This document shows, in pieces, positions 1 to 23,541 of a stretch of DNA of 28,980 nucleotides. Within the stretch, counting starts at the first letter, position 1. Each line of letters starts with the position of its first letter. Source of the stretch: a virus. Lineage: Duplodnaviria > Heunggongvirae > Uroviricota > Caudoviricetes. Where the stretch lies: the IMG/VR virus record IMGVR_UViG_3300042006_000037. One strand, written 5' to 3'. The position numbers were made by a program, and so were the translations under genes. The notes beneath the pieces are model-generated. The model was not told the DNA's origin and did no database searches. It saw only the letters and a program-made list of their open reading frames with translations.

Positions 1-1
1 A

Positions 2-364
2 ATGTCACCTATTGAGTTTGACTTGTACGTTTCGAGCCGCTATCGCATCAAAGCGAATGATGCAAAGGTGCGTAGTCTTGAGTTTGGTCTAACCTTCTCG
101 GAATTCCGCAAATTGTGTGCCCGTCGTGTTTGTCAATATACAGGAATCCGGTTGACACTCCCGGCTGAAAAGCAAAAGAATACAGATATGAGTTTCGAGC
201 GGGTTGACAACTCAAAAGGTTATGTTTCTGGTAATGTTATTACCGTTTGTTTTGCAGCCAATAACATTAAGAGTGTTTTCGAGAATCCAAACCACTTGCT
301 ACAGGTTGAACATGCTGTTAAAATGTTTGCAACAATCAGTAAAATGCAAAAGGGTTTGAAATAA
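2..364 (+). CDS. Srd-like protein (T4 putative anti-sigma family, degenerate HNH-like fold); may be 5'-truncated
   Basis: Motif C-x-YTG...ERVDNSKGYVSGNV..VC..AN..K typical of phage Srd-like proteins. Confidence 0.55.
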   Translation: MSPIEFDLYVSSRYRIKANDAKVRSLEFGLTFSEFRKLCARRVCQYTGIRLTLPAEKQKNTDMSFERVDNSKGYVSGNVITVCFAANNIKSVFENPNHLLQVEHAVKMFATISKMQKGLK

Positions 365-368
365 AAGG

Positions 369-396
369 TTGACAATCTAGCAAATTAATTTAGAAT
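369..396 (+). promoter_or_regulatory. sigma70-like promoter TTGACA-16-TAGAAT
   Basis: TTGACA 369-374, TAGAAT 391-396. Confidence 0.75.
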
Positions 397-430
397 ACTC
401 ACCATCAAACAACGAATAGGACTCACCGTA

Positions 431-559
431 ATGACTTTGTTCTTCAAAAGCCGTACACTTGCACGTCAATTCAAAAGCACCAACGGTAAAGTGGTTGATC
501 ATGGTCATGACGCGCCTAATGGTCGTCGCTGGGGTTTCTTGATCGATAAGAAGGCATAA
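431..559 (+). CDS. 42-aa small phage protein (MTLFFKSRTLARQF...GRRWGF), missed by ORF track
   Basis: Manual translation; AGGA RBS upstream; fills gap between promoter and next gene. Confidence 0.75.
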   Translation: MTLFFKSRTLARQFKSTNGKVVDHGHDAPNGRRWGFLIDKKA

Positions 560-563
560 CCTC

Positions 564-926
564 ATGACCATCAAAAGTATCGTAGTATCAACCAAACCTT
601 TCAAGTTTAACGTTGGTGACCAACTGTTCACCTGTGAGTTCTTCGGCGGTAAAACTCTAACGGTTCTGGGTCCGGTTGAGAAAGACGGATGGGTTGAGAA
701 AGTCAAGGTCTTGTGCACTGACTCTGACAAGTGTTACTCGTTTTGTGTTGGTCGTGAAGACTACATTTTTCCGGGTGATTTAGGCGTTCCGGGTTTTGCA
801 TACGACGACCGTAAATGCAGCCTGTTCCGTAGCAAGAAAGCGGCAGACGCCCATGCTGGTGTTTATTCAAAATGGCTTGATCGAAACCCTGTTGACCTTG
901 ACGACTCATATTTTGGTCACTGGTAA
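564..926 (+). CDS. hypothetical protein (120 aa)
   Basis: ORF in operon, followed by terminator. Confidence 0.75.
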   Translation: MTIKSIVVSTKPFKFNVGDQLFTCEFFGGKTLTVLGPVEKDGWVEKVKVLCTDSDKCYSFCVGREDYIFPGDLGVPGFAYDDRKCSLFRSKKAADAHAGVYSKWLDRNPVDLDDSYFGHW

Positions 927-946
927 CTGATAGAACAAATGTATAG

Positions 947-970
947 AGCCCCGCTTTTGCGGGGCTTTTC
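947..970 (+). terminator. Rho-independent terminator
   Basis: AGCCCCGC-TTTT-GCGGGGCT followed by TTT. Confidence 0.85.
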
Positions 971-1008
971 ATTGCCTAAAAATAAATGCAAAATGGTGAA
1001 AATAGTTG

Positions 1009-1036
1009 TTGACTCGTTTTCTAAAGCCTGTAGAAT
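1009..1036 (+). promoter_or_regulatory. early promoter cassette TTGACT-16-TAGAAT with spacer box TTTTCTAA; 5' stem-loop at ~1046-1065
   Basis: Direct motif match; GAAAGGGG-AAAA-CCTCTTTC hairpin downstream. Confidence 0.8.
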
Positions 1037-1086
1037 GGGCGTCAAGAAAGGGGAAAACCTCTTTCACCACTAAAGAGAATGCGAAC

Positions 1087-1410
1087 ATGACAACAGTTAA
1101 CCAAGTTGCAAAACAAATTGTCGAATCAGCTATTGACATGGAGTATGTGACCGATTGTGGTAAGACAACAGTAGGTGAAGTGTACCAAGCTGAATACGGT
1201 TACAATGGTTTGACTCCTACAGCGTGCAAAGATTATTTGCAAGGGTTGCCAAGTGTATGCACTGTTCCATTCTGGAATAATGAAATTCTAGAACTTCTGG
1301 CAAAGAACGGAATCAGTCGTAAAAGCGATGACGCACAAACTACACTGATTGAGAACTATTGGTACGCTTGTGGTAATCAATTGTTCCTACTTATCAAAGG
1401 TGGTAAGTAA
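1087..1410 (+). CDS. hypothetical protein (107 aa, YLQGLPS motif)
   Basis: Start reassigned to ATG 1087 downstream of promoter. Confidence 0.75.
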   Translation: MTTVNQVAKQIVESAIDMEYVTDCGKTTVGEVYQAEYGYNGLTPTACKDYLQGLPSVCTVPFWNNEILELLAKNGISRKSDDAQTTLIENYWYACGNQLFLLIKGGK

Positions 1411-1411
1411 A

Positions 1412-1639
1412 ATGAAACATCAACATGGTACAATTCTTTGTCTGTTAGAAGGTGGTAACAAGTACAAAGTTATTCACGCACTACCATCAGAAGGAAGTGA
1501 TTTTAAAGGGTTGTACCTTCTTGAATGCGTTGACTTTTGGTGTTCCGAGGATCTTGGTGATGGGATTGAATGTCACAAGGAATATCAACAGCTGTGGATA
1601 GCCTCATACCATGCTGATTTCATGATTGTTTATAAATAA
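1412..1639 (+). CDS. hypothetical protein (75 aa)
   Basis: ATG immediately after upstream stop. Confidence 0.7.
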   Translation: MKHQHGTILCLLEGGNKYKVIHALPSEGSDFKGLYLLECVDFWCSEDLGDGIECHKEYQQLWIASYHADFMIVYK

Positions 1640-1642
1640 AGC

Positions 1643-1670
1643 TTGACCACTTCTCTAAACCTGCTAGAAT
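1643..1670 (+). promoter_or_regulatory. early promoter cassette TTGACC-16-TAGAAT with TTCTCTAA box; 5' stem-loop 1682-1699
   Basis: Direct motif match; GAGAGGC-AAAC-GCCTCTC hairpin. Confidence 0.85.
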
Positions 1671-1717
1671 CAACCACACAAGAGAGGCAAACGCCTCTCG
1701 CTAAAGGAATAAAGATT

Positions 1718-2047
1718 ATGAAATCCGAACAATTCTGGAATGTTGACAACGTTAAAACTTTCAAAGGCTTCGACGTTAACAATGGTGAAGTGTCTGTATC
1801 TGAAAGTGAATATGTAGACTATCTCGATGAGGTTTACGGTGACGTGCAAGTGTGTGGTATGACTTTCGGTTCCGGTCGTCTTTTGCAAGATGCAGACCCT
1901 ACGGCTTTCCGTTGTGGTAAGGGTGATTATGAAAGTGAGTTGCAGTCGGAACTTGAAAACCAACTGTCTAAAGAAGACTCCGACGATATCGAATTTATCG
2001 ACGGTGACGAATGGGAACTTGAAGAAGAAGATGAGGACGAAGAATAA
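1718..2047 (+). CDS. highly acidic 109-aa protein, candidate DNA mimic
   Basis: 34 D/E vs 7 K/R by manual count; AAAGGA RBS; first gene behind its own promoter. Confidence 0.75.
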   Translation: MKSEQFWNVDNVKTFKGFDVNNGEVSVSESEYVDYLDEVYGDVQVCGMTFGSGRLLQDADPTAFRCGKGDYESELQSELENQLSKEDSDDIEFIDGDEWELEEEDEDEE

Positions 2048-2098
2048 CAGTTGATTTATAGAAGCACTCTAGATTGGGTGCTTCTAGTAAGTCTTCTG
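2048..2098 (+). other. long imperfect intergenic hairpin (RNase III-site-like)
   Basis: Core TAGAAGCAC(2059-2067)/GTGCTTCTA(2078-2086), extendable by GATTTA/TAAGTC. Confidence 0.55.
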
Positions 2099-2130
2099 AA
2101 TGTAATACAAACGGACAAATGAGGTGTAAC

Positions 2131-2430
2131 ATGGCTACTACAAAACCGACTAAGAAAACCCGTCAACAACTTGAGCGCCAGATTCTTGAACTTGAGTCAC
2201 AGTTAGCACACCGTTATGCATACGCCCAATCTGAAATAGACAAAGCTTCAACATCTAGAATGATGGCGAGCGGTGTACTGTTGCAACTTACCGCCTTAGG
2301 TGGTCGTGAGATTATCAACCCTGTTGTTATTCGTGATGGTCTGTCACCTGAAACCATTGCAGCAATCAAAGCTGATTTGCACCGTAGTTATGAACTAACT
2401 GTGTTGCATAAAACAAAAGGAATTGAGTAA
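2131..2430 (+). CDS. hypothetical protein (99 aa)
   Basis: GAGGTG RBS before ATG 2131. Confidence 0.75.
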   Translation: MATTKPTKKTRQQLERQILELESQLAHRYAYAQSEIDKASTSRMMASGVLLQLTALGGREIINPVVIRDGLSPETIAAIKADLHRSYELTVLHKTKGIE

Positions 2431-2431
2431 C

Positions 2432-2533
2432 GTGGCGATTCTAAAGCGTAAGAAGAAATGCATGGGATGCGGTGCTATGTTTAGCAATTACCCCGGTATG
2501 TTTTGCCGATACTGTCATGTGAAGGAAGATTGA
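2432..2533 (+). CDS. 33-aa CxxC-x11-CxxC zinc-finger microprotein (GTG start), missed by ORF track
   Basis: MAILKRKKKCMGCGAMFSNYPGMFCRYCHVKED; exactly fills gap between neighbours. Confidence 0.6.
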   Translation: MAILKRKKKCMGCGAMFSNYPGMFCRYCHVKED

Positions 2534-2536
2534 ACC

Positions 2537-2860
2537 ATGGCAAACACTCATACTCCCTTTGTGCGTTCCTGTGTGGCTCTCTGGCTTGCTGGAACAAGTG
2601 AGACAACGTTCTGTGTAGCTGACGTGATAGCGTGCCTTAAAGACACACACACGAGCCTAGAGGCTGTTGATTTATCGAAAGCTGTCAGCAATGAACTGGT
2701 AAGGCTTGAATACATTGGAAAGCTTGTTAGCCATGTTGGCAAGCTTGAAGATGGTTGCGGGGTTGGTCGCCCGCCCCGCGTGTACGCTCGTAGTGTGTGT
2801 CCGCATATGATGGTAGCTTTTCAACAAAAGTCGACAGACGGTAGTTTACAACAGTGTTAA
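2537..2860 (+). CDS. hypothetical protein, possible winged-helix DNA-binding protein
   Basis: Helical N-half plus GRPPRVY wing-like motif; inference only. Confidence 0.55.
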   Translation: MANTHTPFVRSCVALWLAGTSETTFCVADVIACLKDTHTSLEAVDLSKAVSNELVRLEYIGKLVSHVGKLEDGCGVGRPPRVYARSVCPHMMVAFQQKSTDGSLQQC

Positions 2861-2947
2861 ACATGCTAATCTAACAACGTACAAGACAGCAGGATGTTCG
2901 CAGTAGCTGCCGGTAATTACTCTTAACTGATGATTGAGGTTTGCCAA

Positions 2948-3181
2948 ATGGATATTCGTGAATACAAGAAACATCGTACAGCTTTGCGTAACAGCGCTAT
3001 GAACATGAGCGTTGATGGTCTGCAAGAAAGTATTAAAGCGGACTGGAAAGAGCCACAATGGCCTAGTGTGTTGTTTGATGCCATGAATGATGCACTTGAA
3101 CGCAAGATGGGTAAGCGTGCATATGCGACATGGTTTAACAGCCTGTCCAATGTTGAAACTGTAGAGGTAGCACAGCCATGA
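2948..3181 (+). CDS. hypothetical protein (77 aa)
   Basis: GAGGT RBS before ATG 2948. Confidence 0.7.
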   Translation: MDIREYKKHRTALRNSAMNMSVDGLQESIKADWKEPQWPSVLFDAMNDALERKMGKRAYATWFNSLSNVETVEVAQP

Positions 3182-3423
3182 AAAAGCTTTGCACATACAG
3201 CAGTAACGTACACACTCACAGCTCACAGGTTGACCGTATAGCACGTATATACGAAAGTGAGACACCTGTGTTTAAAGGTTGTCGCTTTGAAGTTAGTACA
3301 CACTCTGGCGGCGTTGGTGTTGATTGGGACTTTAAACCATTCAAGACCTTGCAAGATGCTCAATGCTACGCACTCCAGTTTATTGCACCGTCTCACATTC
3401 TTTGCAAATTCAAACCGGACTAA
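3178..3423 (+). CDS. hypothetical protein (81 aa)
   Basis: ATGA overlap with upstream gene. Confidence 0.7.
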   Translation: MKKLCTYSSNVHTHSSQVDRIARIYESETPVFKGCRFEVSTHSGGVGVDWDFKPFKTLQDAQCYALQFIAPSHILCKFKPD

Positions 3424-3439
3424 TTAAGGGTTAACGAAA

Positions 3440-3652
3440 ATGATTCTCACTCCTAAACAGGCGCAAATTCTTATCTGTAGACACCTTGACTCAGGCAACG
3501 GAATATACATTGATAGTCGTTATTATGATGTTCGTGTAAAGGACGGTGTTCTACAGGTTTGTGACTTTAACAGCTGGTTTGACGTTCCAGACGGTGCTGA
3601 GTTTCGCGGCTCACATGGACAACAGCTGTTTATTTATGAAATTGCAAAATAA
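3440..3652 (+). CDS. hypothetical protein (70 aa)
   Basis: AAGGG RBS, operon context. Confidence 0.7.
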   Translation: MILTPKQAQILICRHLDSGNGIYIDSRYYDVRVKDGVLQVCDFNSWFDVPDGAEFRGSHGQQLFIYEIAK

Positions 3653-3655
3653 CCG

Positions 3656-3692
3656 TTGACACGGGGTTAACCAGATGAGACTATAACCCCGT
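3656..3692 (+). promoter_or_regulatory. promoter TTGACA-16-GAGACT overlapped by 9-bp inverted repeat
   Basis: TTGACA 3656-3661; ACGGGGTTA(3661-3669)/TAACCCCGT(3684-3692). Confidence 0.55.
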
Positions 3693-3726
3693 CGAAACAA
3701 AACAATTTTTCTAAAGGAATACGAAA

Positions 3727-3978
3727 ATGTCAATATGGGCAACTATCGCTGTAGTGTGCACAATGTCGGCTTGTTCTGACTATGTGATTGATACAGCGTC
3801 AAACGTGCAAGATGCCAACTCAAACACCCATGCTCAAGATGAGCGCTTTCTAGCCCTTTGGGGTGATGAACAACAGTTGACAGACTGGCTCACAGAGTTT
3901 AAGATCGGTGAGACTGTTTTCGAAATTGTCTCGCTCGAAATGGAAACGAAAGAGATTGTAGAGGATGATGCACCATGA
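3727..3978 (+). CDS. hypothetical protein with hydrophobic N-terminus (83 aa)
   Basis: AAAGGA RBS; N-terminal IWATIAVVC segment; acidic remainder. Confidence 0.7.
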   Translation: MSIWATIAVVCTMSACSDYVIDTASNVQDANSNTHAQDERFLALWGDEQQLTDWLTEFKIGETVFEIVSLEMETKEIVEDDAP

Positions 3979-4167
3979 CCGAAATCAAACAAGGTGACAA
4001 AGTGATGTGCATAGATCCCGACTATCGGAATGTGCTAGAGCTTAACAAGGTATACACTGTTGAAAGGACAATCGAAGTATTTTGGCGGTAAAACCGATTT
4101 GATCCTAGAAGGTGTTCCATTCTACTCATGGATGCCTGAAAGGTTTGTTAAAGAAGGTCGAAAATAA
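3975..4167 (+). pseudogene. small gene interrupted by a +1 frameshift in a T4 run (or sequencing error)
   Basis: Frame 1 stops at 4089-4091; removing one T at 4080-4083 gives a 63-aa protein ending at TAA 4165-4167. Confidence 0.65.
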
Positions 4168-4170
4168 AGC

Positions 4171-4198
4171 TTGACTCCTTCTCTAACTGGTGTAGAAT
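4171..4198 (+). promoter_or_regulatory. early promoter cassette TTGACT-16-TAGAAT with TTCTCTAA box; 5' hairpin ~4211-4231
   Basis: Direct motif match. Confidence 0.85.
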
Positions 4199-4249
4199 TG
4201 AGGACAAGAAAGGGGAAAAATGGTTTTCCCTAAGATGAGAAACATTATC

Positions 4250-4348
4250 ATGAACAAGTATATGGTTGCACTTCCTGTTGGTGTTCTGATTACTGTAGCA
4301 CTGTATGCTATGATTAACTACGGTTCCATTCTGGCGACGACTATCTAA
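4250..4348 (+). CDS. 32-aa single-TM membrane micropeptide, missed by ORF track
   Basis: MNKYMVALPVGVLITVALYAMINYGSILATTI; directly behind promoter. Confidence 0.6.
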   Translation: MNKYMVALPVGVLITVALYAMINYGSILATTI

Positions 4349-4349
4349 T

Positions 4350-4544
4350 ATGAAAGCTCATAACTTCCTTAATGTGTTCAATATTTCAAAAGCCTTGCAT
4401 CTTCTGGAAAACAACCTAGATTATGCAGCCATGTCCGACGATCTTGTAATGGTAGTTGCCCATGATAATACAGTGTGGGTATGTAGAGAGGACGGTTCTA
4501 GTTGCGCACTTGATAACCTCAAGTTGGTACAGCGTATTGTCTAG
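4350..4544 (+). CDS. hypothetical protein (64 aa)
   Basis: ATG directly after upstream stop. Confidence 0.65.
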   Translation: MKAHNFLNVFNISKALHLLENNLDYAAMSDDLVMVVAHDNTVWVCREDGSSCALDNLKLVQRIV

Positions 4545-4596
4545 TGTAATTATCAGAAAGTTCTGTTATGTACTTAAGAGCTTTCGAGTAATTACA
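4545..4596 (+). other. long imperfect intergenic hairpin (RNase III-site-like)
   Basis: TGTAATTATCAGAAAGTTCT pairs with AGAGCTTTCGAGTAATTACA. Confidence 0.55.
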
Positions 4597-4607
4597 TGAT
4601 GTATAAA

Positions 4608-4772
4608 ATGCAATATCTTTCAGTAGTAAACTTAGTTGTTATCGCATTCTTTGCTGTAGTATGGGCTAAAACTAGCTGGTCCAACTTTGTTATTAAATTT
4701 GCTCTAATTACACTTACAGTGTTTAATGCTGTATATGTTTTTCAATCATTCGGTTATGTTGTAAAACTATAA
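4608..4772 (+). CDS. 54-aa two-TM membrane protein, missed by ORF track
   Basis: MQYLSVVNLVVIAFFAVVWAKTSWSNFVIKFALITLTVFNAVYVFQSFGYVVKL. Confidence 0.65.
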   Translation: MQYLSVVNLVVIAFFAVVWAKTSWSNFVIKFALITLTVFNAVYVFQSFGYVVKL

Positions 4773-4781
4773 GGAAATAAT

Positions 4782-4943
4782 ATGTTGGTCATGAAACGAA
4801 GCGGGAAGCCGTTCAAGTGCGGTAAGATCGTAGCGTCTATCCTTGGTTATACAGTCAACCCACAATGCCCTAAACAGTCCAGAGCGGCACTAATGCAGGA
4901 TGGTAGCATTGTGAACCTTGACCGACTGAAATGGTGGCTGTAA
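4782..4943 (+). CDS. 53-aa basic hypothetical protein, missed by ORF track
   Basis: AAGGA RBS; MLVMKRSGKPFKCGK...KWWL. Confidence 0.7.
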   Translation: MLVMKRSGKPFKCGKIVASILGYTVNPQCPKQSRAALMQDGSIVNLDRLKWWL

Positions 4944-4945
4944 AG

Positions 4946-4961
4946 AGTTCCACGTGAAACA
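4946..4961 (+). promoter_or_regulatory. parS-like centromere site 1
   Basis: AGTTCCACGTGAAACA, 15/16 to consensus TGTTNCACGTGAAACA; intergenic. Confidence 0.75.
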
Positions 4962-4965
4962 ATAG

Positions 4966-4990
4966 AGCCCCAGCTTATGCTGGGGTTTTT
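4966..4990 (+). terminator. Rho-independent terminator
   Basis: GCCCCAGC-TTAT-GCTGGGGT followed by TTTT. Confidence 0.85.
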
Positions 4991-4994
4991 AATA

Positions 4995-5095
4995 CCTGTG
5001 ATTTTCTTTTCAAAAGGTTGAAAATAAAGCTTGACCGGTTCTCTAAACCTGCTAGAATTACACCATACAGACAAACAACGGAGCAAGACGAAATG
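4995..5095 (+). repeat. 101-nt promoter-to-ATG cassette, copy A
   Basis: Ungapped alignment to 5945-6045, 72/101 identical by manual count. Confidence 0.7.
5031..5058 (+). promoter_or_regulatory. early promoter cassette TTGACC-16-TAGAAT with TTCTCTAA box
   Basis: Direct motif match. Confidence 0.85.
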
Positions 5096-5188
5096 AACGT
5101 CACTGACTTGGTATGTGAAATTATCTTCTGGATGATAATCACCACACTGGTTGCTGCTCTGGTTACTTCTTTAATCACTGGTCTGTAA
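5093..5188 (+). CDS. 31-aa single-TM membrane micropeptide, missed by ORF track
   Basis: GGAG RBS; MNVTDLVCEIIFWMIITTLVAALVTSLITGL. Confidence 0.65.
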   Translation: MNVTDLVCEIIFWMIITTLVAALVTSLITGL

Positions 5189-5210
5189 TCAAACAACAAA
5201 GGTGTTTTTA

Positions 5211-5528
5211 ATGTTATTAATGTCTGTTGAAAAATACGTTGATCATTATGCATTGCGTATGCGTAGTGGTTTGGTTACTGGTGAGCTTATAGCCCAGTTT
5301 GAAACCGAACAACAGGCTAAAGAGTGGGCATATTCTCAAGGTGGGGAGATAATCACCACCGTCGCAGTGTACAAGCGGATAGAGATTGCTAAGGACGTGT
5401 GCGGTAAATTCTACGCCTTCAATCTGTACGGTGATCAATGTTGTAAAGGTGTGGTGTTCAGAAGTGAATCCCATGTAAAGGATCTTATTGATTGGCATCT
5501 AGAATGCAAAGCAAAGGGGTTTGTATGA
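5211..5528 (+). CDS. hypothetical protein (~105 aa)
   Basis: AAAGGTG RBS; start uncertain (5211 or 5220). Confidence 0.7.
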   Translation: MLLMSVEKYVDHYALRMRSGLVTGELIAQFETEQQAKEWAYSQGGEIITTVAVYKRIEIAKDVCGKFYAFNLYGDQCCKGVVFRSESHVKDLIDWHLECKAKGFV

Positions 5529-5698
5529 AACATTGGGTACTTGCACGCGACTTGATGCAATCAATTATCACAAACCTAGACACAAACCGTATGACGCTCA
5601 AAGCTGCAAAGCTTTACTATTCAGCGTATGGTGTTGAGGTGAAAGGGCGAACAAAAGAGCAATTCATAAAGAACCTGTCAAAGCTTGTAAGCGAATGA
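5525..5698 (+). CDS. hypothetical basic protein (57 aa)
   Basis: ATGA overlap with upstream gene. Confidence 0.65.
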   Translation: MKHWVLARDLMQSIITNLDTNRMTLKAAKLYYSAYGVEVKGRTKEQFIKNLSKLVSE

Positions 5699-5736
5699 AC
5701 AAAGCCCCGCAATCTAAATGGTTGACGGGGCTTTGT
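5699..5736 (+). terminator. 11-bp inverted repeat, probable terminator, containing the -35 of the next promoter
   Basis: ACAAAGCCCCG(5699-5709)/CGGGGCTTTGT(5726-5736). Confidence 0.55.
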
Positions 5737-5750
5737 CTCGCCTGTAGAAT
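5722..5750 (+). promoter_or_regulatory. promoter TTGACG-17-TAGAAT with no clear downstream protein gene
   Basis: Direct motif match. Confidence 0.7.
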
Positions 5751-5769
5751 TATGTTCATGGTGTTAGGT

Positions 5770-5865
5770 TTGGCACGAGACAAACACGGGATGAGCCTGT
5801 TATTCCTAGTTGGCACGCAAATAGCATATGAAACTGTGTTCAAAGTTGGCACGCTTATTGGTACG
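5770..5865 (+). repeat. three TTGGCACG plus one TTGGTACG; includes sigma54-type GG-N10-GC box at 5810-5826
   Basis: TTGGCACG at 5770, 5810, 5846; TTGGTACG at 5858. Confidence 0.65.
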
Positions 5866-5944
5866 ACGTTTTAATCCGAAAGACATATCAGCATCAAGGG
5901 TATGCTATATCGTTGCTCAAATCGCTTTATAGGAGCTTACAGAG

Positions 5945-6045
5945 CCTGTGAATTCTTTTCTAAAAGATTGAAAATAAAACTTGCATGGTTCTCTAACCGG
6001 TGTAGACTGAATTTAACGAAACGAACAGCGGAGCAACACAAAATG
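5945..6045 (+). repeat. 101-nt promoter-to-ATG cassette, copy B, containing promoter TTGCAT-16-TAGACT (5981-6008) with TTCTCTAA box
   Basis: Ungapped homology to 4995-5095. Confidence 0.7.
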
Positions 6046-6225
6046 CCTTCACTCAATAAAGTAACATCAATCATTTCCAAATTTGACGAATTGAACAAGG
6101 TTTGGCGAGTGGTTGCATATATGGAAGACGGCACAAATGTATGTTTGGGCAATACACCTACTGAGAAAGGTGCAAAACGGATGGTTACAGTCCACAAGAA
6201 ATTTCACAACTTACCTTTAAAATAA
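6043..6225 (+). CDS. hypothetical basic protein (60 aa)
   Basis: GGAG RBS before ATG 6043. Confidence 0.7.
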   Translation: MPSLNKVTSIISKFDELNKVWRVVAYMEDGTNVCLGNTPTEKGAKRMVTVHKKFHNLPLK

Positions 6226-6228
6226 AGC

Positions 6229-6256
6229 TTGCATAGTTTTCTAAACCGCCTAGAAT
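6229..6256 (+). promoter_or_regulatory. early promoter cassette TTGCAT-16-TAGAAT with TTTTCTAA box
   Basis: Direct motif match. Confidence 0.8.
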
Positions 6257-6294
6257 GAAATCAGTGAAACAAACACACCAAAAGGACAAAGATC

Positions 6295-6687
6295 ATGGTT
6301 AACAAAGTTTGGAAATTCACCAGTGAAGAAAAGGCTCTGATACGTAAGGCTGCATTGAAAGCCACTTGTGTGGGACGTGTGAAGCTTGAAGCTGGTGAGC
6401 GTGTGTCATTGATTGACAGCAGCAAACCAATCTCTAACAATTGCTGGCTGGTTGACGACGATGATGCTTTGTGTAATTCAGACCTGCACCAAACCCAAGA
6501 TTGGGCAGAGACTTGCAAGGGTGTGGAACTGACACCAGAGGGCAAAGCGTTCATTGACTTTTACGTTTATAGCGTTGGTGAATATTCAGAGCTGATTACT
6601 AACATTGGCGTCTGTTATGAGCATGGTTCTATCCAGTACATTGAAAACGTTGGTTGCTCAAAGATTTATGTAAAACAGTTAAAATAG
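6295..6687 (+). CDS. hypothetical protein (130 aa)
   Basis: AAAGGA RBS; behind promoter. Confidence 0.8.
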   Translation: MVNKVWKFTSEEKALIRKAALKATCVGRVKLEAGERVSLIDSSKPISNNCWLVDDDDALCNSDLHQTQDWAETCKGVELTPEGKAFIDFYVYSVGEYSELITNIGVCYEHGSIQYIENVGCSKIYVKQLK

Positions 6688-6690
6688 TTG

Positions 6691-6718
6691 TTGACGCCTT
6701 CTCTAAAAGGTATAGAAT
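6691..6718 (+). promoter_or_regulatory. early promoter cassette TTGACG-16-TAGAAT with TTCTCTAA box; 5' stem-loop 6729-6748
   Basis: Direct motif match; GGGAAGC-AAGACA-GCTTCCC. Confidence 0.85.
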
Positions 6719-6770
6719 TGAACACATAGGGAAGCAAGACAGCTTCCCAGCCAACCAAAGGTAGAACACC

Positions 6771-7127
6771 ATGAACGACAAAAATGCTGTAGCATTGTTG
6801 AAAACTGACACCATTGCCAAGTTTGAACAACGTGTTGAAGAGTTGAATCAATACATCTTGACAAGTGGTGAAATCAGCAAATGGATTGTCGTGTGTGGTA
6901 ATGAGCACCCAATGCCTGTTAACTTTGATGCACCCAATCCTAAATGGCCTTGGGTCAAAGTGGAAAACGCTTCCAAGTGGGACAGCCAGCGAGTTGCACG
7001 CATCAAGGCTCAAAGTGTTGTAAATGGCAATAATCAAGTGGGATGGGCTGTGCTGGTAGCAGACCATGTTGAATGGGATATTGCCAACCTGCAAAAGCTC
7101 ATTGCCGACTTGAAAGCTGAAAAATAG
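6771..7127 (+). CDS. hypothetical protein (118 aa)
   Basis: AAAGGT RBS; behind promoter. Confidence 0.8.
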   Translation: MNDKNAVALLKTDTIAKFEQRVEELNQYILTSGEISKWIVVCGNEHPMPVNFDAPNPKWPWVKVENASKWDSQRVARIKAQSVVNGNNQVGWAVLVADHVEWDIANLQKLIADLKAEK

Positions 7128-7130
7128 TTG

Positions 7131-7159
7131 TTGCACTGGGGTTGTGAAGTCGATATAAT
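7131..7159 (+). promoter_or_regulatory. promoter TTGCAC-17-TATAAT
   Basis: Direct motif match with AAAATAGTTG upstream. Confidence 0.75.
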
Positions 7160-7193
7160 GGCTTCACACCCATACAACATAAGGTTCTCTAAA

Positions 7194-7424
7194 ATGAACA
7201 CTCAAAATACTCCAGTTAACCAGAACCACGAATTGATTGCAGCGGCTGTTACCAAGGTCATATCCGAGGCAGATGAGTTTGGTTATGATTGCACCTTGAA
7301 CGCCTTTCACCTGCAATTGATGCTGGACTGCTATGTTAACGGTATGGAACCTGTGTTGCTGGTTCGTGAAATGCAAGCCGGTGCAGATACAAACCGCGCC
7401 TTCTGGATGGTGATAAATCGTTAA
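7194..7424 (+). CDS. hypothetical protein (76 aa)
   Basis: AAGG RBS; ATG 7194. Confidence 0.7.
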   Translation: MNTQNTPVNQNHELIAAAVTKVISEADEFGYDCTLNAFHLQLMLDCYVNGMEPVLLVREMQAGADTNRAFWMVINR

Positions 7425-7432
7425 ATAAAAGC

Positions 7433-7468
7433 TTGTACAGAGAGCATTCTCTAAGGTAGAATGCTCTC
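7433..7468 (+). promoter_or_regulatory. promoter TTGTAC-18-TAGAAT overlapped by perfect 11-bp inverted repeat
   Basis: GAGAGCATTCT(7440-7450)/AGAATGCTCTC(7458-7468). Confidence 0.65.
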
Positions 7469-7511
7469 ACACGGTCAAAAGACCTACCCCATTAGATAGA
7501 GGTTTTCTAAA

Positions 7512-7703
7512 ATGGCTAAGCGCAAGATTCAAACGTTCGCAAATAACAGCAAAGTGGCTAATGTTTATCGGAATGTTGAGTTTGATGAATATGAAGTGCG
7601 GTTTTCTGTCAACGGTGAAGACCTTGATTCAGATGCTGACTATTTCACCAATGACAAACAGGATGCGATTGATACGGCTGTCAATTGGGTGAATGAAGAA
7701 TAA
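7512..7703 (+). CDS. hypothetical protein (63 aa)
   Basis: GAGGT RBS. Confidence 0.75.
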   Translation: MAKRKIQTFANNSKVANVYRNVEFDEYEVRFSVNGEDLDSDADYFTNDKQDAIDTAVNWVNEE

Positions 7704-7718
7704 TCGTTAAATAAAAGC

Positions 7719-7746
7719 TTGCACCCTTCTCTAAACCGTGTACAAT
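7719..7746 (+). promoter_or_regulatory. early promoter cassette TTGCAC-16-TACAAT with TTCTCTAA box
   Basis: Direct motif match. Confidence 0.8.
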
Positions 7747-7784
7747 GACTGTAACGAAACGAAATCAACCCTGAGGATACGACC

Positions 7785-8054
7785 ATGGCTTTCATCAAAT
7801 CTGAGATTCAAGTCAAAGACATGCAGAAAGGTGATGTTTTTCGCGTGGTCGAATCTAATGGTAACCTCAAAGGCACTTTCGAGTATGAGGTTGTTAGCCT
7901 TAAAACCGAATCCGTCACATTGCAAGTGGGTGATAGCGGCACCGTTCGCCAAGTGGATCAATGCACCCTCAAGGTTGTTAATCGCAAGAATGGTGCCAAC
8001 AAAACCAAGAAATACAATTCTAACCAAATGCTGACAGTATGGCGTCAAGCTTAA
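7785..8054 (+). CDS. hypothetical beta-rich protein (89 aa)
   Basis: GAGGA RBS. Confidence 0.75.
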   Translation: MAFIKSEIQVKDMQKGDVFRVVESNGNLKGTFEYEVVSLKTESVTLQVGDSGTVRQVDQCTLKVVNRKNGANKTKKYNSNQMLTVWRQA

Positions 8055-8091
8055 AAACAGCTTGTACACATCATAAAGAGAGGAAATTATC

Positions 8092-8367
8092 ATGGCTGGT
8101 ATTCAATCGCATTACGAAATCAACGTAAGTCATAAAGGTCGTCACTTGTTTGCTACCGATACCCGGTCAGCTGTTGATGAAAACACAGCTAGAATGTTGG
8201 TTAATATTATCATAGAACGGTTCCCTGCAAAGGAAGGGTTTGAGGTGTCTTGTACCCACTGGCGTTGTGGTGGTACTAGTGTAACCTTTGACGTTCCAAA
8301 ACCAGTGATTAAAACACTTGAAGAACTGGAACGTGAAAACCCTGATGGGTTCCGTAATCCTGAGTGA
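8092..8367 (+). CDS. hypothetical protein (91 aa)
   Basis: GAGGA RBS. Confidence 0.75.
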   Translation: MAGIQSHYEINVSHKGRHLFATDTRSAVDENTARMLVNIIIERFPAKEGFEVSCTHWRCGGTSVTFDVPKPVIKTLEELERENPDGFRNPE

Positions 8368-8390
8368 TAACCTAAACTCAAATACTAAAA

Positions 8391-8406
8391 TGTTCCACGT
8401 GAAACA
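8391..8406 (+). promoter_or_regulatory. parS-like centromere site 2 (perfect consensus)
   Basis: TGTTCCACGTGAAACA, 16/16 to TGTTNCACGTGAAACA; intergenic. Confidence 0.85.
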
Positions 8407-8420
8407 AAGGACTAACTAAG

Positions 8421-8681
8421 ATGGCAACTGTAATTAAACATACTGTACTCAGCAGCAAACTGGCATTAACCGAAATGACCGATGGCTTCTGGTTATATGA
8501 TGAAACCCGTGGCATGAATCTAGCAATGCGTGCCAAGACAGCAGAAGTTGCTTTTGTAGAAGCACTGACCTATTATCAAGACCGATTGACATTGGTAGAA
8601 AGTGAACACAAGGAATTGAAGCAAAAGGTTGACGCATTCGTTTCTCAGTTTGTAGATGAGAATGATAGTCAAGGGTATTGA
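8421..8681 (+). CDS. hypothetical protein with C-terminal coiled coil (86 aa)
   Basis: AAAGGA RBS. Confidence 0.75.
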   Translation: MATVIKHTVLSSKLALTEMTDGFWLYDETRGMNLAMRAKTAEVAFVEALTYYQDRLTLVESEHKELKQKVDAFVSQFVDENDSQGY

Positions 8682-8707
8682 CACAAACCGATTGTTAGTA
8701 GTACAAT
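8678..8707 (+). promoter_or_regulatory. promoter-like TTGACA-18-TACAAT pointing into the non-coding region
   Basis: Motif match; spacer is 1 nt longer than optimal. Confidence 0.5.
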
Positions 8708-9178
8708 GCTCTAGATTCTGTGGTAGTAACCACAGCGAGCAACCGAAGCTAGTAGAGGAAAGGGAGGGGAAAACCTCCCCTCTTAAAGAATATAATATTA
8801 TGTTGTATACAACATAGAAGTAATACTCTATATAACCTATTGTTATGTTTCACATAACAGGCGTACACATCAGATATAGAAACAGGGTAGTCACCCCTGT
8901 TCTCTTCCCTTGTATGCGGTAGCATGCCCTCTGTAACCTCCTACAATACCCCTCATTGCAACGCAATAAACATTCCCTACCATGGGCATAGCCCATCATA
9001 TACCACTTCTCCTAAAGCCTTATAGCTCATGGCTTACAAGCCATGTATATAACAGATCATGTCGTATAACGACATAAATATAACCTATTCACAGATAAGG
9101 CTATTCGGGGATAAGCTGAACATTGGGACAATGGGTTGGTCAATTGGTTAAGCCTCACTCTCTCGAAATACATTTACA

Positions 9179-9194
9179 CGTTTCACGTGGAACA
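9179..9194 (-). promoter_or_regulatory. parS-like centromere site 3
   Basis: Minus strand reads TGTTCCACGTGAAACG, 15/16 to consensus; intergenic. Confidence 0.75.
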
Positions 9195-9273
9195 TATTCC
9201 AATTCTTTTATTCATAAAAGATAATGATATCCATTCACATTCAGGTCATTCTGACGAAAGGTAGTGAAATAGT

Positions 9274-9302
9274 TTGCCTTCTTGCCCGAATGGGCGTATG
9301 CT
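9274..9302 (+). promoter_or_regulatory. orphan promoter-like TTGCCT-17-TATGCT
   Basis: Motif match; no ORF downstream. Confidence 0.45.
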
Positions 9303-9521
9303 GTATGACATGGGTGATGAGTCTGTGCAACGCAGACATATAGAGTCAGTCACCTAATCCAAGCCAATCGATAGACCCAGCCTTTCCGGTGCATACCAAG
9401 GGAGGACATAGTGCATTGCGTGTAATCAGTATTATGTTAAACACGATTGAATGAGAATCATTTACATACCATGTGCATAGACTGAGTGATATGTCAATCA
9501 TCATATGAGGATGGATCAACA

Positions 9522-9538
9522 AGCATAGATCATGCCAA
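9522..9538 (-). promoter_or_regulatory. sigma54-type -24/-12 box TTGGCATG-ATCT-ATGCT
   Basis: GG-N10-GC spacing on minus strand. Confidence 0.4.
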
Positions 9539-9710
9539 GTCGTAGGGATTTTGAGAATGTTTAGACGGGCGGTAGGTGCCTGAAGTCCGGGGCGTTAAAC
9601 CCATTTACGCAATATCAGGGATTCCAAGGTATACGGATTCTGGAAGGAAGTGTATTCGGAGAAGTGTAAAATAGGGTAATTGAAAATACAGGGGAATGGA
9701 ATTTTGGGTA

Positions 9711-9734
9711 AAATAAAACCCGCTCAATGGCGGG
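9711..9734 (-). terminator. Rho-independent terminator of minus-strand operon
   Basis: CCCGC-CATTGA-GCGGG then TTTTATTTT directly after the TAG of the last gene. Confidence 0.75.
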
Positions 9735-10436
9735 CTATGGGAAGCGAGCAAGTAACGCTGCTGCAACTCGGGGATCAGATTGTTTACCAGCTAGTTCAAT
9801 TGCAGCTTCGCGTTTAGAATTATACCAAGCTAGATATGCATCTTCTGGTGTATCATACATACCGAGATGTTTTTTAACACCACCAACTCCAGAGCTAATA
9901 CCTGCGATATACTGTTTACCGTTACATGATAGAGATACACCGATTGGTAGATTTCCTCGACTTGCTTTTCTTTCAGTTAAGAAACAGTTAACAGCATGTG
10001 ATATAAACAAGCATGTATCCGGACCGTATACTTTGTTACCTTCTACAAGAAGGTCTTTGTCAAGCTCTTTACCTTCCCAATCCTGAGTTAACATCCATGA
10101 TCGAAACCCCATGAACGAGTGCCACTCATCAACGACTGAGCAATCTTCATATGTCGGATACTTTTCTTTAAGTCTGGTTGAATAACCACGTTCAATCATA
10201 CTTATCCATTTTTGGTAGATTGGGCAAACAAGTTGTTTTCCCCCGACAATAGGTGCTACCGGATAATTAGCATCATTGATACCTACACCACGTATGAGTT
10301 TCAAAGCAGGTTTAGGTTTAGGGTTTTTAAAACACCACAACTTATTACCGCAAGATTTTGTGCATACCATTGCATCCTTCCTTGAGGGTATGAAATCATT
10401 GTTACAGAATTTACATTTACGATACGTTGTTTTCAT
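9735..10436 (-). CDS. HNH-like homing endonuclease with N-terminal Zn finger and C-terminal AP2-like domain
   Basis: GVGIND...W.SM..R.Y...EW..F..F..WM...LDKD....K.YGP..C.F; AP2-like GVS...Y.A...LG.Y...A..A. Confidence 0.7.
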   Translation of the reverse strand: MKTTYRKCKFCNNDFIPSRKDAMVCTKSCGNKLWCFKNPKPKPALKLIRGVGINDANYPVAPIVGGKQLVCPIYQKWISMIERGYSTRLKEKYPTYEDCSVVDEWHSFMGFRSWMLTQDWEGKELDKDLLVEGNKVYGPDTCLFISHAVNCFLTERKASRGNLPIGVSLSCNGKQYIAGISSGVGGVKKHLGMYDTPEDAYLAWYNSKREAAIELAGKQSDPRVAAALLARFP

Positions 10437-14837: not shown

Positions 14838-15067
14838 TACTTTCGACTTTCCTTGTATTCTTCTACAAAGCCAAGAATTACCCGGTACAGTTGGAAGGTG
14901 AAATAACCAAGAACAGTCAATGCAACGAGTACAATACAAATTGCGATGAACCCAACAGGGTAACTGATCAACAAATACAACAGAAGCCAGATTACAGCGA
15001 TCACAAGCAGAACACTGATACTGGTTATGACATGTGTGTTTGTAAAGAAGTTCTTCAGCTTTTCCAT
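14837..15067 (-). CDS. two-TM membrane protein (76 aa)
   Basis: Two long hydrophobic segments; GGAG RBS. Confidence 0.75.
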   Translation of the reverse strand: MEKLKNFFTNTHVITSISVLLVIAVIWLLLYLLISYPVGFIAICIVLVALTVLGYFTFQLYRVILGFVEEYKESRK

Positions 15068-15579
15068 GGTTTACTCTCCAGTAAGTATTGTAGTTCTTCA
15101 AGTGTGTATTCATCCAAGTCTACATGGGACTGGAACCCTTGTCTAGCTATTTTTGGCATCCATTGTCCAGCTTGATCACCGTCACCGATCCCAATCAGAT
15201 TGTATGGTAGTGTGTGCAACCAACTTTCCATTGGTTTTGGGTTTGATGTTAGCAGAGCTAGAGCATTATGTCCAAGCATATGTAAAGCAGATGCTTTAAA
15301 GATTCCTTCAACAAGATACAGATCCTTTTTGCTGGTGTCAAGTGTTTCTAATCCCCAGCAGGCGTTTACACCGCGTTGACTGTATGTGAAATAACGTGCA
15401 TCTGACGATAAATTCAGTCGTTTGAACTCAACATCTGGTCTGTATTGCTGAAAGCCAACAAATTGACCACTCAAGTTAGTTAGAAACACGGTGAGAACGT
15501 TGTTGTCAACGTCCAGTACATGATTGATATACCGACTTGGATCGTAATGACGTGTCAGCAGGTGTCGAATTAGATTCAA
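15055..15579 (-). CDS. stand-alone TOPRIM (primase-like) protein
   Basis: G..VG.Q.Y...YF......WGLE.......LVEGIFKA...GDGD.AG. Confidence 0.7.
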   Translation of the reverse strand: MNLIRHLLTRHYDPSRYINHVLDVDNNVLTVFLTNLSGQFVGFQQYRPDVEFKRLNLSSDARYFTYSQRGVNACWGLETLDTSKKDLYLVEGIFKASALHMLGHNALALLTSNPKPMESWLHTLPYNLIGIGDGDQAGQWMPKIARQGFQSHVDLDEYTLEELQYLLESKPWKS

Positions 15580-15785: not shown

Positions 15786-16158
15786 TCCTCACTCCAAAAT
15801 GTTTCAACAGAATGTCGTTCATCTCAGCAAACAACTTGGGACTCGTTTCACGCATCTTAGCCATACCTACTCCTATCCCTTTAGATGGGAAAACAATAGT
15901 CCGTCGCTTAGCTAATGAATACAGTTCACGGAGTGCCTTCAAAACATGCTCACGTTCGCAATCTCTGTCGGTAAAGAATGATCCAGCTTCCATCGACGGG
16001 TATCTTTTGGTTGGAATACCGAATGCATTAGGTTCTTTTCGGATACACGCTTGCCCAGCTGTACCGTATCCAGCGAGGTTACAACCAAAGACAAATATCT
16101 TCTCAGGGTTCTCTTTGCACAATTTTACATTAAGATCATTACAGTATTTAATTTTCAC
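15772..16158 (-). CDS. conserved phage protein, FVFGxN...G.AGQA...PNA.GIPTK family
   Basis: Motif recognition; function uncertain. Confidence 0.7.
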   Translation of the reverse strand: MKIKYCNDLNVKLCKENPEKIFVFGCNLAGYGTAGQACIRKEPNAFGIPTKRYPSMEAGSFFTDRDCEREHVLKALRELYSLAKRRTIVFPSKGIGVGMAKMRETSPKLFAEMNDILLKHFGVRNGHG

Positions 16159-16711
16159 TGAACCTCCTTACGATTGCGTCCAATACCCAAGTTGGTCTGT
16201 CACTGAATAATTCAATCGCTGAATTTCGTTTCGCATTGTTATGTGCACGAACAGCATCCTCGATAGTTTCAAATCTACCAAGGTAATTATTAACACCGTT
16301 ACTGCCAAAGTGTGCGTGAATACCACCACTACTATTTAGTGCTACCCCTTGTGGTAAACCCCACTTGTTCTTACTTGATTTAATGAACGAATTAACATCT
16401 GAATCGATGAACACACAAACATTCGGTGAATAAATTGTACCGTCACCAAGAAGGTCTTTGTCTAAACATTTACCCTCATGATCCTGACAACTCATCCAGT
16501 CCTTAAACGTAGAAAATGATTTCCATTCCTCACAGACAGTTGACTTACCGTAGTTAGGTCGTTCTGAAAGAGATGCTTTTGAATAACACCTCTTCAGCAT
16601 ATTTGCCCACTTCGTGTAAAAAGGGCAACGCCATTTAACGTTGCCCTCTGAGTCTTTCAACTGTACTGGTGTTTCTGAATCATTTATTCCAACACCATAT
16701 ACCTTTTTCAT
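16148..16711 (-). CDS. HNH-like homing endonuclease with AP2-like domain (paralog of 9735-10436)
   Basis: GVGIND...CP.Y.KW..M..RCY...EEW..F..F..WM...LDKDLL....YSP..C.F. Confidence 0.7.
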   Translation of the reverse strand: MKKVYGVGINDSETPVQLKDSEGNVKWRCPFYTKWANMLKRCYSKASLSERPNYGKSTVCEEWKSFSTFKDWMSCQDHEGKCLDKDLLGDGTIYSPNVCVFIDSDVNSFIKSSKNKWGLPQGVALNSSGGIHAHFGSNGVNNYLGRFETIEDAVRAHNNAKRNSAIELFSDRPTWVLDAIVRRFSEN

Positions 16712-18422: not shown

Positions 18423-18953
18423 TCACGCGTATTGATTGATTATATCCATTATCTGACTCGGGGTATGGTTTCGATCAACTCCATCTTCGAACCTCATTTT
18501 ATAGCCGTTTGGCCACATTCCAGTACAGTCAATGTCGAGCTTGGCAGCCGCAATCAACCCTGCAATGTCAGCACCTGTCTGGCCACCACTTACAACATGG
18601 TCAAGCTTCCAGTGTTGATGTACTTGGTTTAGGATTCCATACACCATATGATTTACACCATGCTGGGTGAACCCATGTTTTGCATACGTGTAGATACCAT
18701 TACCTGCGACATTCACAACCCTGCAATCTGACTCTTTCAGCTTCTTGTATAACTCACGAGCTGATCGAATCCAGTCGGTTGCAAAGTTCTTGGCATCACA
18801 ATGAATTATACCATTCTTTTCTGCTGCTTTGGTAGTTAATTTTTCACCAGAGGTTGTAAAGTCTACAGCAATTGCCAAGGTTACACCTTGAGCAGCATTG
18901 TGATACGTCCGTGCGGCATAACTTGAGCTTTTATGCTCTCTGATATTAATCAT
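18423..18953 (-). CDS. SLOG-superfamily (cpYpsA/MoCo-carrier-like) protein with permuted motif order
   Basis: RT..N...TL, NVAGN and SGGQTGAD.A.L.AA motifs. Confidence 0.75.
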   Translation of the reverse strand: MINIREHKSSSYAARTYHNAAQGVTLAIAVDFTTSGEKLTTKAAEKNGIIHCDAKNFATDWIRSARELYKKLKESDCRVVNVAGNGIYTYAKHGFTQHGVNHMVYGILNQVHQHWKLDHVVSGGQTGADIAGLIAAAKLDIDCTGMWPNGYKMRFEDGVDRNHTPSQIMDIINQYA

Positions 18954-19510
18954 GTTCCGTGCCTCTCTGTGAATTCTTTATTCAATTCCCAAGACCTTCT
19001 CGCACATATTGCGTCTAATAAATTTTCATGGTATCCAAGGTGAAATACTTTATAATTATAAGTTCCAGTTGCGTGCCAAGCGTTATATCTATTATACCAC
19101 CGCACACCATGTAGTCCAGACTTATTTGTATTCCTAAGTCTTTGGTTCTTTGTGTTAACTGACTGAGATGCTGGTCTTAGATTGGAAATCGAGTTGTTCT
19201 TCGTATTCCCATCGAAATGATCAATTGTTTCATCAGGCCAAACGCCATGAAACATCGCGTAAAGGATACGGTGCTGATACATAACTTTCTTACTTTCACC
19301 AATTCCACGCAATCCAACAGTCCAGTAATCATTCTTTGAAATCGAACCCGCAACCTTTCCAAACTGCCTCGGATTTATTGTATTGTAAGCAAAATCTGTC
19401 TCGAAATGATATCGAGGTCTTTGTTTCCACGTCAATTTCCCGGTCTGAAAGTTAACATCGAAACACTCCCACAAATAATCAACCTGGAAATCTTCGTAGT
19501 TCATTGTCAC
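18950..19510 (-). CDS. HNH homing endonuclease with AP2-like domain
   Basis: HRILY....G.WP...IDHFDGN..NN.I.NLR...N..N; SG..GV.W. Confidence 0.85.
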   Translation of the reverse strand: MTMNYEDFQVDYLWECFDVNFQTGKLTWKQRPRYHFETDFAYNTINPRQFGKVAGSISKNDYWTVGLRGIGESKKVMYQHRILYAMFHGVWPDETIDHFDGNTKNNSISNLRPASQSVNTKNQRLRNTNKSGLHGVRWYNRYNAWHATGTYNYKVFHLGYHENLLDAICARRSWELNKEFTERHGT

Positions 19511-23345: not shown

Positions 23346-23541
23346 GAGAAACCTCCATCTTATTTACTTCAATGAACTCAGGATGATCATCTAACGTGAA
23401 GTTGGTCCACGTGTAACGCCAATAACCATCATGCAGTTCGTAATCTTCGTAGTGTACACCACATGAATGGTAACGTGCAACTGGTTTCTTACCAAGAGTT
23501 GCATCAAGTTTCGATTGCCATGTAACGATAGCACCTGACAT
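23338..23541 (-). CDS. hypothetical protein (67 aa)
   Basis: TAATG overlap. Confidence 0.7.
   Translation of the reverse strand: MSGAIVTWQSKLDATLGKKPVARYHSCGVHYEDYELHDGYWRYTWTNFTLDDHPEFIEVNKMEVSLD

Follow-up and report, generated by a model that had tools for sequence, protein, structure and literature searches.

The closest described precedent for a phage that makes use of its host's chromosome segregation system comes from Bacillus. The virulent phages phi29 and Nf carry parS sites of the host type, five of them in phi29, which are used via the host protein Spo0J for entrapment in the spore (PMC2731898). In Pseudomonas aeruginosa and P. putida the chromosomal parS reads TGTTCCACGTGGAACA, and the half-sites GTTCCAC and GTTTCAC are both bound by ParB in chromatin immunoprecipitation sequencing (ChIP-seq; PMC4368675, PMC7022226); the promoters beside the intergenic parS3 and parS4 are repressed by P. 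aeruginosa ParB (PMC5521831). Here we analyse a stretch of 28,980 nucleotides (hereafter the window) from the Caudoviricetes record IMGVR_UViG_3300042006_000037 of IMG/VR, in which an initial annotation had noticed three 16-mers resembling bacterial parS. Judged from sequence comparison across relatives, the parS feature is real and selected, and we lean towards the explanation that the three 16-mers serve in cis to load the chromosomal ParB of the host, acting as a phage centromere, as a means of damping early promoters, or as both.

Results

Three orphan parS sites in a Caudoviricetes genome

The window corresponds to the minus strand of G000:C1:17582-46561, and the virus record as a whole comprises 104,907 bp with a guanine-plus-cytosine (GC) content of 42.8%; a single base differs between the window and the stored genome record, at window position 19485. 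The sites match the consensus TGTTNCACGTGAAACA, a 16-bp palindrome, with one, zero and one mismatches, respectively. Site 1 lies on the plus strand at 4946-4961 (AGTTCCACGTGAAACA, differing at position 1), site 2 on the plus strand at 8391-8406 (TGTTCCACGTGAAACA, an exact match), and site 3 on the minus strand at 9179-9194 (TGTTCCACGTGAAACG, one mismatch), in a variable linker of a non-coding block described below. All three are intergenic, and in each the CACGTG core and both GTT(C/T)CAC arms are unbroken. The three intergenic 16-mers within 4.3 kb that had been reported are therefore confirmed at these positions, and they stand far above chance expectation.

Under a first-order Markov model, 0.064 sites with at most one mismatch are expected per genome, and the probability of three or more is about 4e-5. 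The whole 104,907-bp genome contains no such site besides these three, and for three points placed at random in 105 kb, a span of 4.25 kb or less has a probability of about 0.005. When up to three mismatches are allowed, the window holds seven strand-matches against 0.73 expected, a number reached in 0 of 100 shuffles; a weak fourth match, with three mismatches, lies at 23403. The GC content around the sites is about 0.40, the same as in the rest of the phage, which argues that they are not freshly captured host DNA. Two trivial origins were thus rejected, chance on the Markov and enrichment statistics and recent capture of host DNA on the phage-like local composition. Other scans were set aside: the half-sites GTTCCAC and GTTTCAC are genome-wide at most mildly above Markov expectation, show no local excess beyond the full sites and are not counted as evidence, and the exact 16-mer occurs in at least 120 IMG/VR contigs, which for a database of that size is not clearly above chance and was left unused.

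The earlier observation that no parAB is in view extends from the window to the whole genome, in which a domain search found no ParB_N (PF02195), HTH_ParB (PF17762), AAA_31 (PF13614) or CbiA (PF01656). Likewise, a tyrosine integrase, ParB_N and a ParA-type ATPase (AAA_31, CbiA) were found in none of nine parS-bearing genomes, which comprise this phage and the eight relatives considered below; relatives of the phage have been characterised as virulent (PMC10580904). With no cognate parAB on the replicon, the sites are orphans that must depend on a host protein.

Conservation of the sites among relatives

Megablast of the region against GenBank phages returned no near-identical match, and relatives emerged only through distant and protein searches. 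The nearest named relatives by protein are the Pseudomonas phages vB_PpS_SYP (60% in NAMPT), phiPMW (59%) and the Otagovirus Ep020 (55%), and closer uncultured relatives of 97-107 kb are present in IMG/VR (G001-G005). Every named relative infects Pseudomonas, the sequencing runs that contain the sequence are rhizosphere metagenomes, and the genome carries a PL7 alginate lyase gene; together, these observations indicate that the host is probably a Pseudomonas. No RNA run is listed among the sequencing runs, in which the sequence occurs as contigs. Neither the phage terminase nor the alginate lyase turned up a relative when bacterial genomes were scanned with them, and the host parS sequence was taken from the literature alone. 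For this probable host, the published parS and the ChIP-seq binding of both half-sites agree with the ParB specificity on which the initial annotation had made its proposal depend.

Sites with at most one mismatch number two each in G001 and G002, three each in G003 and G005, one in G004 (plus one that differs solely at the two outermost bases), five in vB_PpS_SYP (plus a copy in its terminal repeat), three in phiPMW (KU862660.1) and five in Ep020, and the perfect Pseudomonas palindrome TGTTCCACGTGGAACA is also present in relatives. The nine genomes combined hold 27 such sites against 0.5 expected, compared to a single site in a control of fifty other viral records (about 2.7 Mb). Across 1.3 Mb of loci around a shared gene, sites were found only in the ~100-kb relatives and in one 130-kb record. 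Among other phages, REC1 has two sites and PPSC2 has one.

The location of the sites is as constant as their sequence. Window positions 1-8681 form an early arm, in which successive TTGAC-16-TAGAAT promoters precede small genes on the plus strand, and from 9735 on the genes lie on the minus strand and include HNH endonucleases, primase pieces, a ligase and NAMPT/Prs. In every parS-bearing genome the sites span at most 7.5 kb and occupy the distal early arm and the boundary zone between the arms; the genes between the clustered sites differ from genome to genome, and the early genes beside them have been swapped. At site 1, alignment with G001-G003 shows unrelated sequence upstream and homology that starts exactly at parS and runs through a terminator into a promoter. 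A related strain in an independent sequencing run (X8) has site 1 unchanged and differs from 4962 onward, and site 2 is found at the same place in G005 despite diverged flanks. Conservation in relatives had been proposed as a test of the sites, and it bears them out: positions are kept in eight relatives with diverged flanks. On these alignments, the sites stay the same as the sequence around them changes.

Conflict between parS and CACGTG avoidance

The relatives that lack parS, namely G006, G007, G008 and G009, have purged the parS core hexamer CACGTG, with 0 observed against 21 expected, 1 against ~13, 0 against ~13 and 2 against ~13 occurrences, respectively, presumably owing to pressure from a CACGTG-specific restriction system. 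The hexamer is also absent from phiPMW (0 against 23 expected), in which three syntenic sites, one before an early gene and two in the boundary zone, are perfect but for one core transition, to CACATG. These variant sites point to selection that keeps as much of parS as restriction avoidance permits, as far as can be judged from sequence. In P. aeruginosa an intact parS core matters for affinity, and core variants are still bound specifically (PMC4368675). The overall pattern would be that expected of sites selected for ParB binding in conflict with host defence. In G006 only remnants are left, in the form of two adjacent GGAACA arms in the boundary zone.

G006 (101,375 bp) has many early genes in common with this phage and is without its DNA polymerase, primase-helicase, UvrD-type helicase, ligase and non-coding block; parS loss in G006 was apparently accompanied by an exchange of the replication module. 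We also considered a general rule that parS is present wherever CACGTG is tolerated, and rejected it as it fails outside the phiPMW-like clade, in the phages Kremar, Psxphi15 and KIL1.

Position of the sites relative to early transcription units

Site 1 begins 2 nt past the TAA of the open reading frame (ORF) at 4782-4943 and is followed after 4 nt by an intrinsic-terminator hairpin with a T-run on the plus strand (4966-4990; fold -19 kcal/mol), the stem of which is listed on the opposite strand by the hairpin scan and shows compensatory changes in G001-G003. An early sigma-70-type promoter, TTGACC-16-TAGAAT (5031-5058, plus strand), lies 70 nt downstream of the site, and in G001-G003 parS, terminator and promoter are kept as a single intergenic module. 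Site 2 is placed between ORF 8092-8367 and the ribosome-binding site (RBS) and ATG of ORF 8421-8681, directly upstream of the RBS. The latter ORF, on the plus strand, is the last gene of the early arm and encodes 86 aa belonging to PHROG 19040, with no assigned function.

To describe this arrangement across genomes, we oriented each of 28 sites along early transcription. In sixteen cases the site follows the stop codon of a credible ORF by 0-13 nt, and 13 of these 16 have a GC-rich hairpin of -11 kcal/mol or stronger within 5 nt; at several post-stop sites an early promoter follows 20-100 nt further downstream. Among the remaining positions, the boundary zone accounts for about eight of the 28, and one site lies inside a gene. 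The site grammar, which is new here, is stop codon, parS, terminator hairpin and early promoter, and it recurs in Ep020, a member of a different genus.

Such an arrangement raises the question of whether host ParB acts on these phages mainly as a regulator or insulator of transcription, its clamps at the ends of early units sliding over the terminator-promoter spacers and damping or timing whichever early units come next, or the promoter that leads the non-coding block. The prevalence of post-stop sites with a terminator hairpin close behind, often with a promoter 20-100 nt on, is consistent with this explanation, as are the site in G004 that overlaps the -35 element of a promoter-like sequence and the repression by P. 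aeruginosa ParB of promoters beside parS3 and parS4 (PMC5521831). However, the gap between stop codon and terminator may be the sole safe spot for a 16-bp insert in a packed early region, the roughly eight boundary-zone sites are distant from early promoters, and silencing by bacterial ParB is weak and local (PMC5521831, PMC7022226). We therefore regard a mainly regulatory role as unlikely.

Two further observations concern the surroundings and spacing of the sites. In vB_PpS_SYP, a 484-aa DndB-family protein (PF14072, E 4e-32) is encoded at 7671-9125 (locus L024) and ends immediately before a parS; no homologue was seen in the window. In sequencing run X6, a low-depth contig that touches window positions 4947 and 8408 joins two parS copies 22 bases apart, indicating that a related phage has a tandem parS pair, and parS pairs 25-42 bp apart are present in the IMG/VR loci L038, L059, L090 and L104.

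A conserved non-coding block at the boundary of the two arms

Between the early arm and the replication-gene arm lies a conserved non-coding block of about 1 kb with many hairpins (8712-9721, plus strand), into which a conserved sigma-70-type promoter, TTGACA-18-TACAAT, reads (8678-8707, plus strand). From end to end, the segment 8678-9721 shares 68-73% identity with G001, G002, G003 and G005, and within the hairpins of the block 37 pairs have changed on both sides among the five sequences. Two patches of the block are AT-rich (8780-8839 and 9170-9259). A parS at the place of site 3 is also found in G001 and G005; G002 and G003 have another small palindrome there and carry parS about 300 bp upstream of the promoter, with a terminator behind it. 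The sites thus flank a promoter-led non-coding block with AT-rich patches, beside the primase gene and the replication arm.

Candidate roles for the segment 8678-9721 are a long structured RNA, an origin primed by transcription, and a terminal or packaging region. Rfam and ARAGORN gave no match in the region, DnaA boxes are not enriched, and no iteron arrays were found in the boundary zone. Right behind the promoter, at 8712-8785, two small hairpins with stems that covary in relatives precede a very AT-rich stretch, and this part may correspond to a short RNA some 75 nt long.

The initial annotation had placed the sites next to a putative terminus, and this was not confirmed for the contig itself, which ends about 20 kb from the sites in a 127-bp terminal repeat equal in length to the assembler overlap. 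A possible link to a terminus comes from the vB_PpS_SYP record (OQ183418.1), in which a 351-bp direct terminal repeat at 1-351 and 106823-107173, with a perfect parS at 294-309, maps to a zone syntenic with window positions ~9100-9500. The contigs of G001 and G004 also end in this syntenic zone, which may mark real genome ends.

Beyond the block, the replication arm contains three HNH homing-endonuclease genes at 9735-10436, 16148-16711 and 18950-19510, two of which are of the PHROG 953 type; one gene of this type adjoins a DNA-primase fragment gene at 15055-15579. These observations suggest that mobile endonucleases have inserted in the replication arm. We had considered ORF 9735-10436 as a synteny marker and dropped it because it encodes a mobile HNH homing endonuclease that occurs in unrelated phages.

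A proposed role for host ParB

The initial annotation had suggested that the phage loads host ParB onto its DNA. What stands of this suggestion is that the sites are genuine, orphan and conserved parS; binding of host ParB to them is probable, given their match to the motif and their conservation. According to the mechanism we propose, host ParB dimers carrying cytidine triphosphate would bind the sites once the phage DNA has been injected and while it replicates. The bound dimers would close as clamps and slide along the few kilobases that separate and surround the sites, such that one partition complex would form where the early-gene and replication-gene arms meet. Via host ParA, and possibly SMC, phage genomes would then be positioned on the nucleoid, and in slow or stalled infections, such as a carrier state, pseudolysogeny or starved cells, they would be passed to both daughter cells. 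This would be a non-sporulating counterpart of the use of Spo0J by phi29. As a second and compatible effect, ParB could damp the early promoters that lie 20-100 nt behind several of the sites.

These components differ in how far we would press them. Centromere-like use, serving the positioning or inheritance of genomes in slow or carrier infections, is a serious possibility that falls somewhat short of probable, and we favour it over promoter control; ParB-dependent control of the adjacent early promoters appears doubtful as an explanation of the sites. More speculatively, in at least two genera, large lytic Pseudomonas phages might have a true centromere, in the form of a parS cluster, beside a promoter-led structured non-coding block that is possibly an origin, with host ParABS positioning and passing on unintegrated genomes in carrier or pseudolysogenic, slow-growing rhizosphere hosts, and with CACGTG restriction forcing either loss of the centromere or its decay to CACATG as in phiPMW. 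We put forward this fuller scenario only tentatively.

Several points weigh against a role as loading sites for host ParB. There is no obvious benefit of segregation in a fast lytic cycle. The half-sites of P. aeruginosa always have C at position 5 (PMC4368675) and one arm of each phage site has T, although GTTTCAC, with T at this position, is nevertheless bound by ParB in ChIP-seq (PMC7022226). The host is only inferred, from relatives that grow on P. putida, P. plecoglossicida and other Pseudomonas, from the alginate lyase and from the rhizosphere origin of the runs. The related Pseudomonas phages Kremar, Psxphi15 and KIL1 tolerate CACGTG and yet are without parS, indicating that the sites are dispensable or optional for such phages. 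Lastly, 13 of the 14 asymmetric sites read TGTTCCACGTGAAACA along transcription (P of about 0.002, with sites that are non-independent), a bias that a purely DNA-level function does not predict. Boundary-zone sites are found in both orientations, and when the transcripts are folded the preferred orientation forms no hairpin, compared to -3.4 kcal/mol for the reverse orientation and -6.3 kcal/mol for the perfect palindrome. Common descent could account for the bias, as could a secondary constraint at the mRNA level, namely hairpin avoidance, and in either case it would not be evidence against a DNA-level role.

The number of sites allows a different use of the same protein, in which dozens of replicating phage genomes draw ParB, and with it SMC, off the origin region of the host and disturb chromosome organisation or division. 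Each genome offers multiple sites of predicted high affinity that replication multiplies, and ParB is not abundant (PMC7022226). Such a sponge would gain the phage little, since Pseudomonas ParB is non-essential and its loss has mild effects (PMC4368675, PMC7022226), and titration leaves the strict clustering in one syntenic zone unexplained. We consider it improbable.

A similarly small probability attaches to the possibility that the phage itself encodes the binder, a protein of an unrecognised family that reads the palindromes as operators, with the likeness to parS being mimicry or coincidence. Room for such a protein exists, as most early genes around the sites are without a known family, and Pfam and PHROGs gave no function for the early ORFs next to them. 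However, coincidence would hardly give two phage genera a sequence that matches the host centromere at 16 of 16 positions, no ParB-type domain was found, and the early genes beside the sites are swapped between relatives. In addition, a comparison of all ORFs between eight parS-bearing and six parS-lacking genomes found no small gene whose presence follows that of the sites; the genes that do so are limited to those for replication and the ligase.

Least probable is that the 16-mers, rather than binding protein as DNA, function in RNA or as linkers at which gene modules recombine, as the 13-to-1 orientation bias, the mosaic junctions between relatives that coincide with site 1 and the metagenome assembly graphs that break or join at sites might suggest, given that neither role explains the identity to parS, that RNA of the preferred orientation forms no hairpin and that boundary-zone sites occur in both orientations.

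Discussion

Implications

If host ParB does load onto these sites, phages classed as strictly lytic on Pseudomonas would have a device for the orderly inheritance or positioning of their DNA. This would offer a molecular handle on pseudolysogeny and carrier states, which is relevant to soil phage ecology and to phage therapy, and it would mean that the phi29 trick reaches from spore-formers to Gram-negative bacteria. The way in which CACGTG-specific restriction collides with the parS core offers a concrete and testable case of host defence limiting the use that a phage makes of a host factor. The question can be tested directly with relatives available in culture, phiPMW on P. putida and vB_PpS_SYP on P. 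plecoglossicida.

Comparison with known systems

In full-text literature searches, host-type parS was not found reported for any phage of Gram-negative bacteria, and the published accounts of phiPMW and vB_PpS_SYP make no mention of parS. Among systems that do resemble the present one, plasmid prophages such as P1 (parABS) and N15 (sopABC), along with ParB/KorB-type regulators, share a centromere-like cis site on a phage genome. P1 and N15 differ in that they encode their own ParA and ParB and have element-specific centromeres, whereas the phage described here encodes neither protein and carries the sequence of the host chromosome.

The chromosomal parABS of Pseudomonas, with parS1-4 near oriC in P. 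aeruginosa and the parS of P. putida, is closer in sequence and layout. It shares the same 16-bp family, several sites within a few kilobases, and intergenic sites beside promoters, and repression by ParB is a feature of the chromosomal system (PMC4368675, PMC5521831). The differences are that the phage replicon is without a cognate parAB operon and that one arm of the phage sites is usually GTTTCAC and not GTTCCAC.

The closest likeness is to phi29 and Nf. Those phages too are virulent, have no ParB of their own and carry several parS of the host chromosome; the phage examined here is of the virulent type, lacks ParB and has three host-type parS, and we propose that it likewise exploits host segregation for a non-lytic fate of its genome. 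Pseudomonas does not form spores, and with such a Gram-negative bacterium as the probable host, spore entrapment cannot be the purpose here. The genome is also about five times larger than that of phi29, and the phi29 system includes Spo0A boxes for a second host factor, Spo0A, of which no counterpart is known here. The sites in the present phages are gathered in one zone of 4-7 kb with a stop-parS-terminator-promoter grammar, whereas those of phi29 are spread over the genome map. Taken together, the system described here is a variant of the phi29 principle and not a new principle; the new elements are the grammar and orientation bias of the sites, their clash with avoidance of CACGTG together with the variants in phiPMW, the occurrence in Otagovirus, and the conserved non-coding block around site 3.

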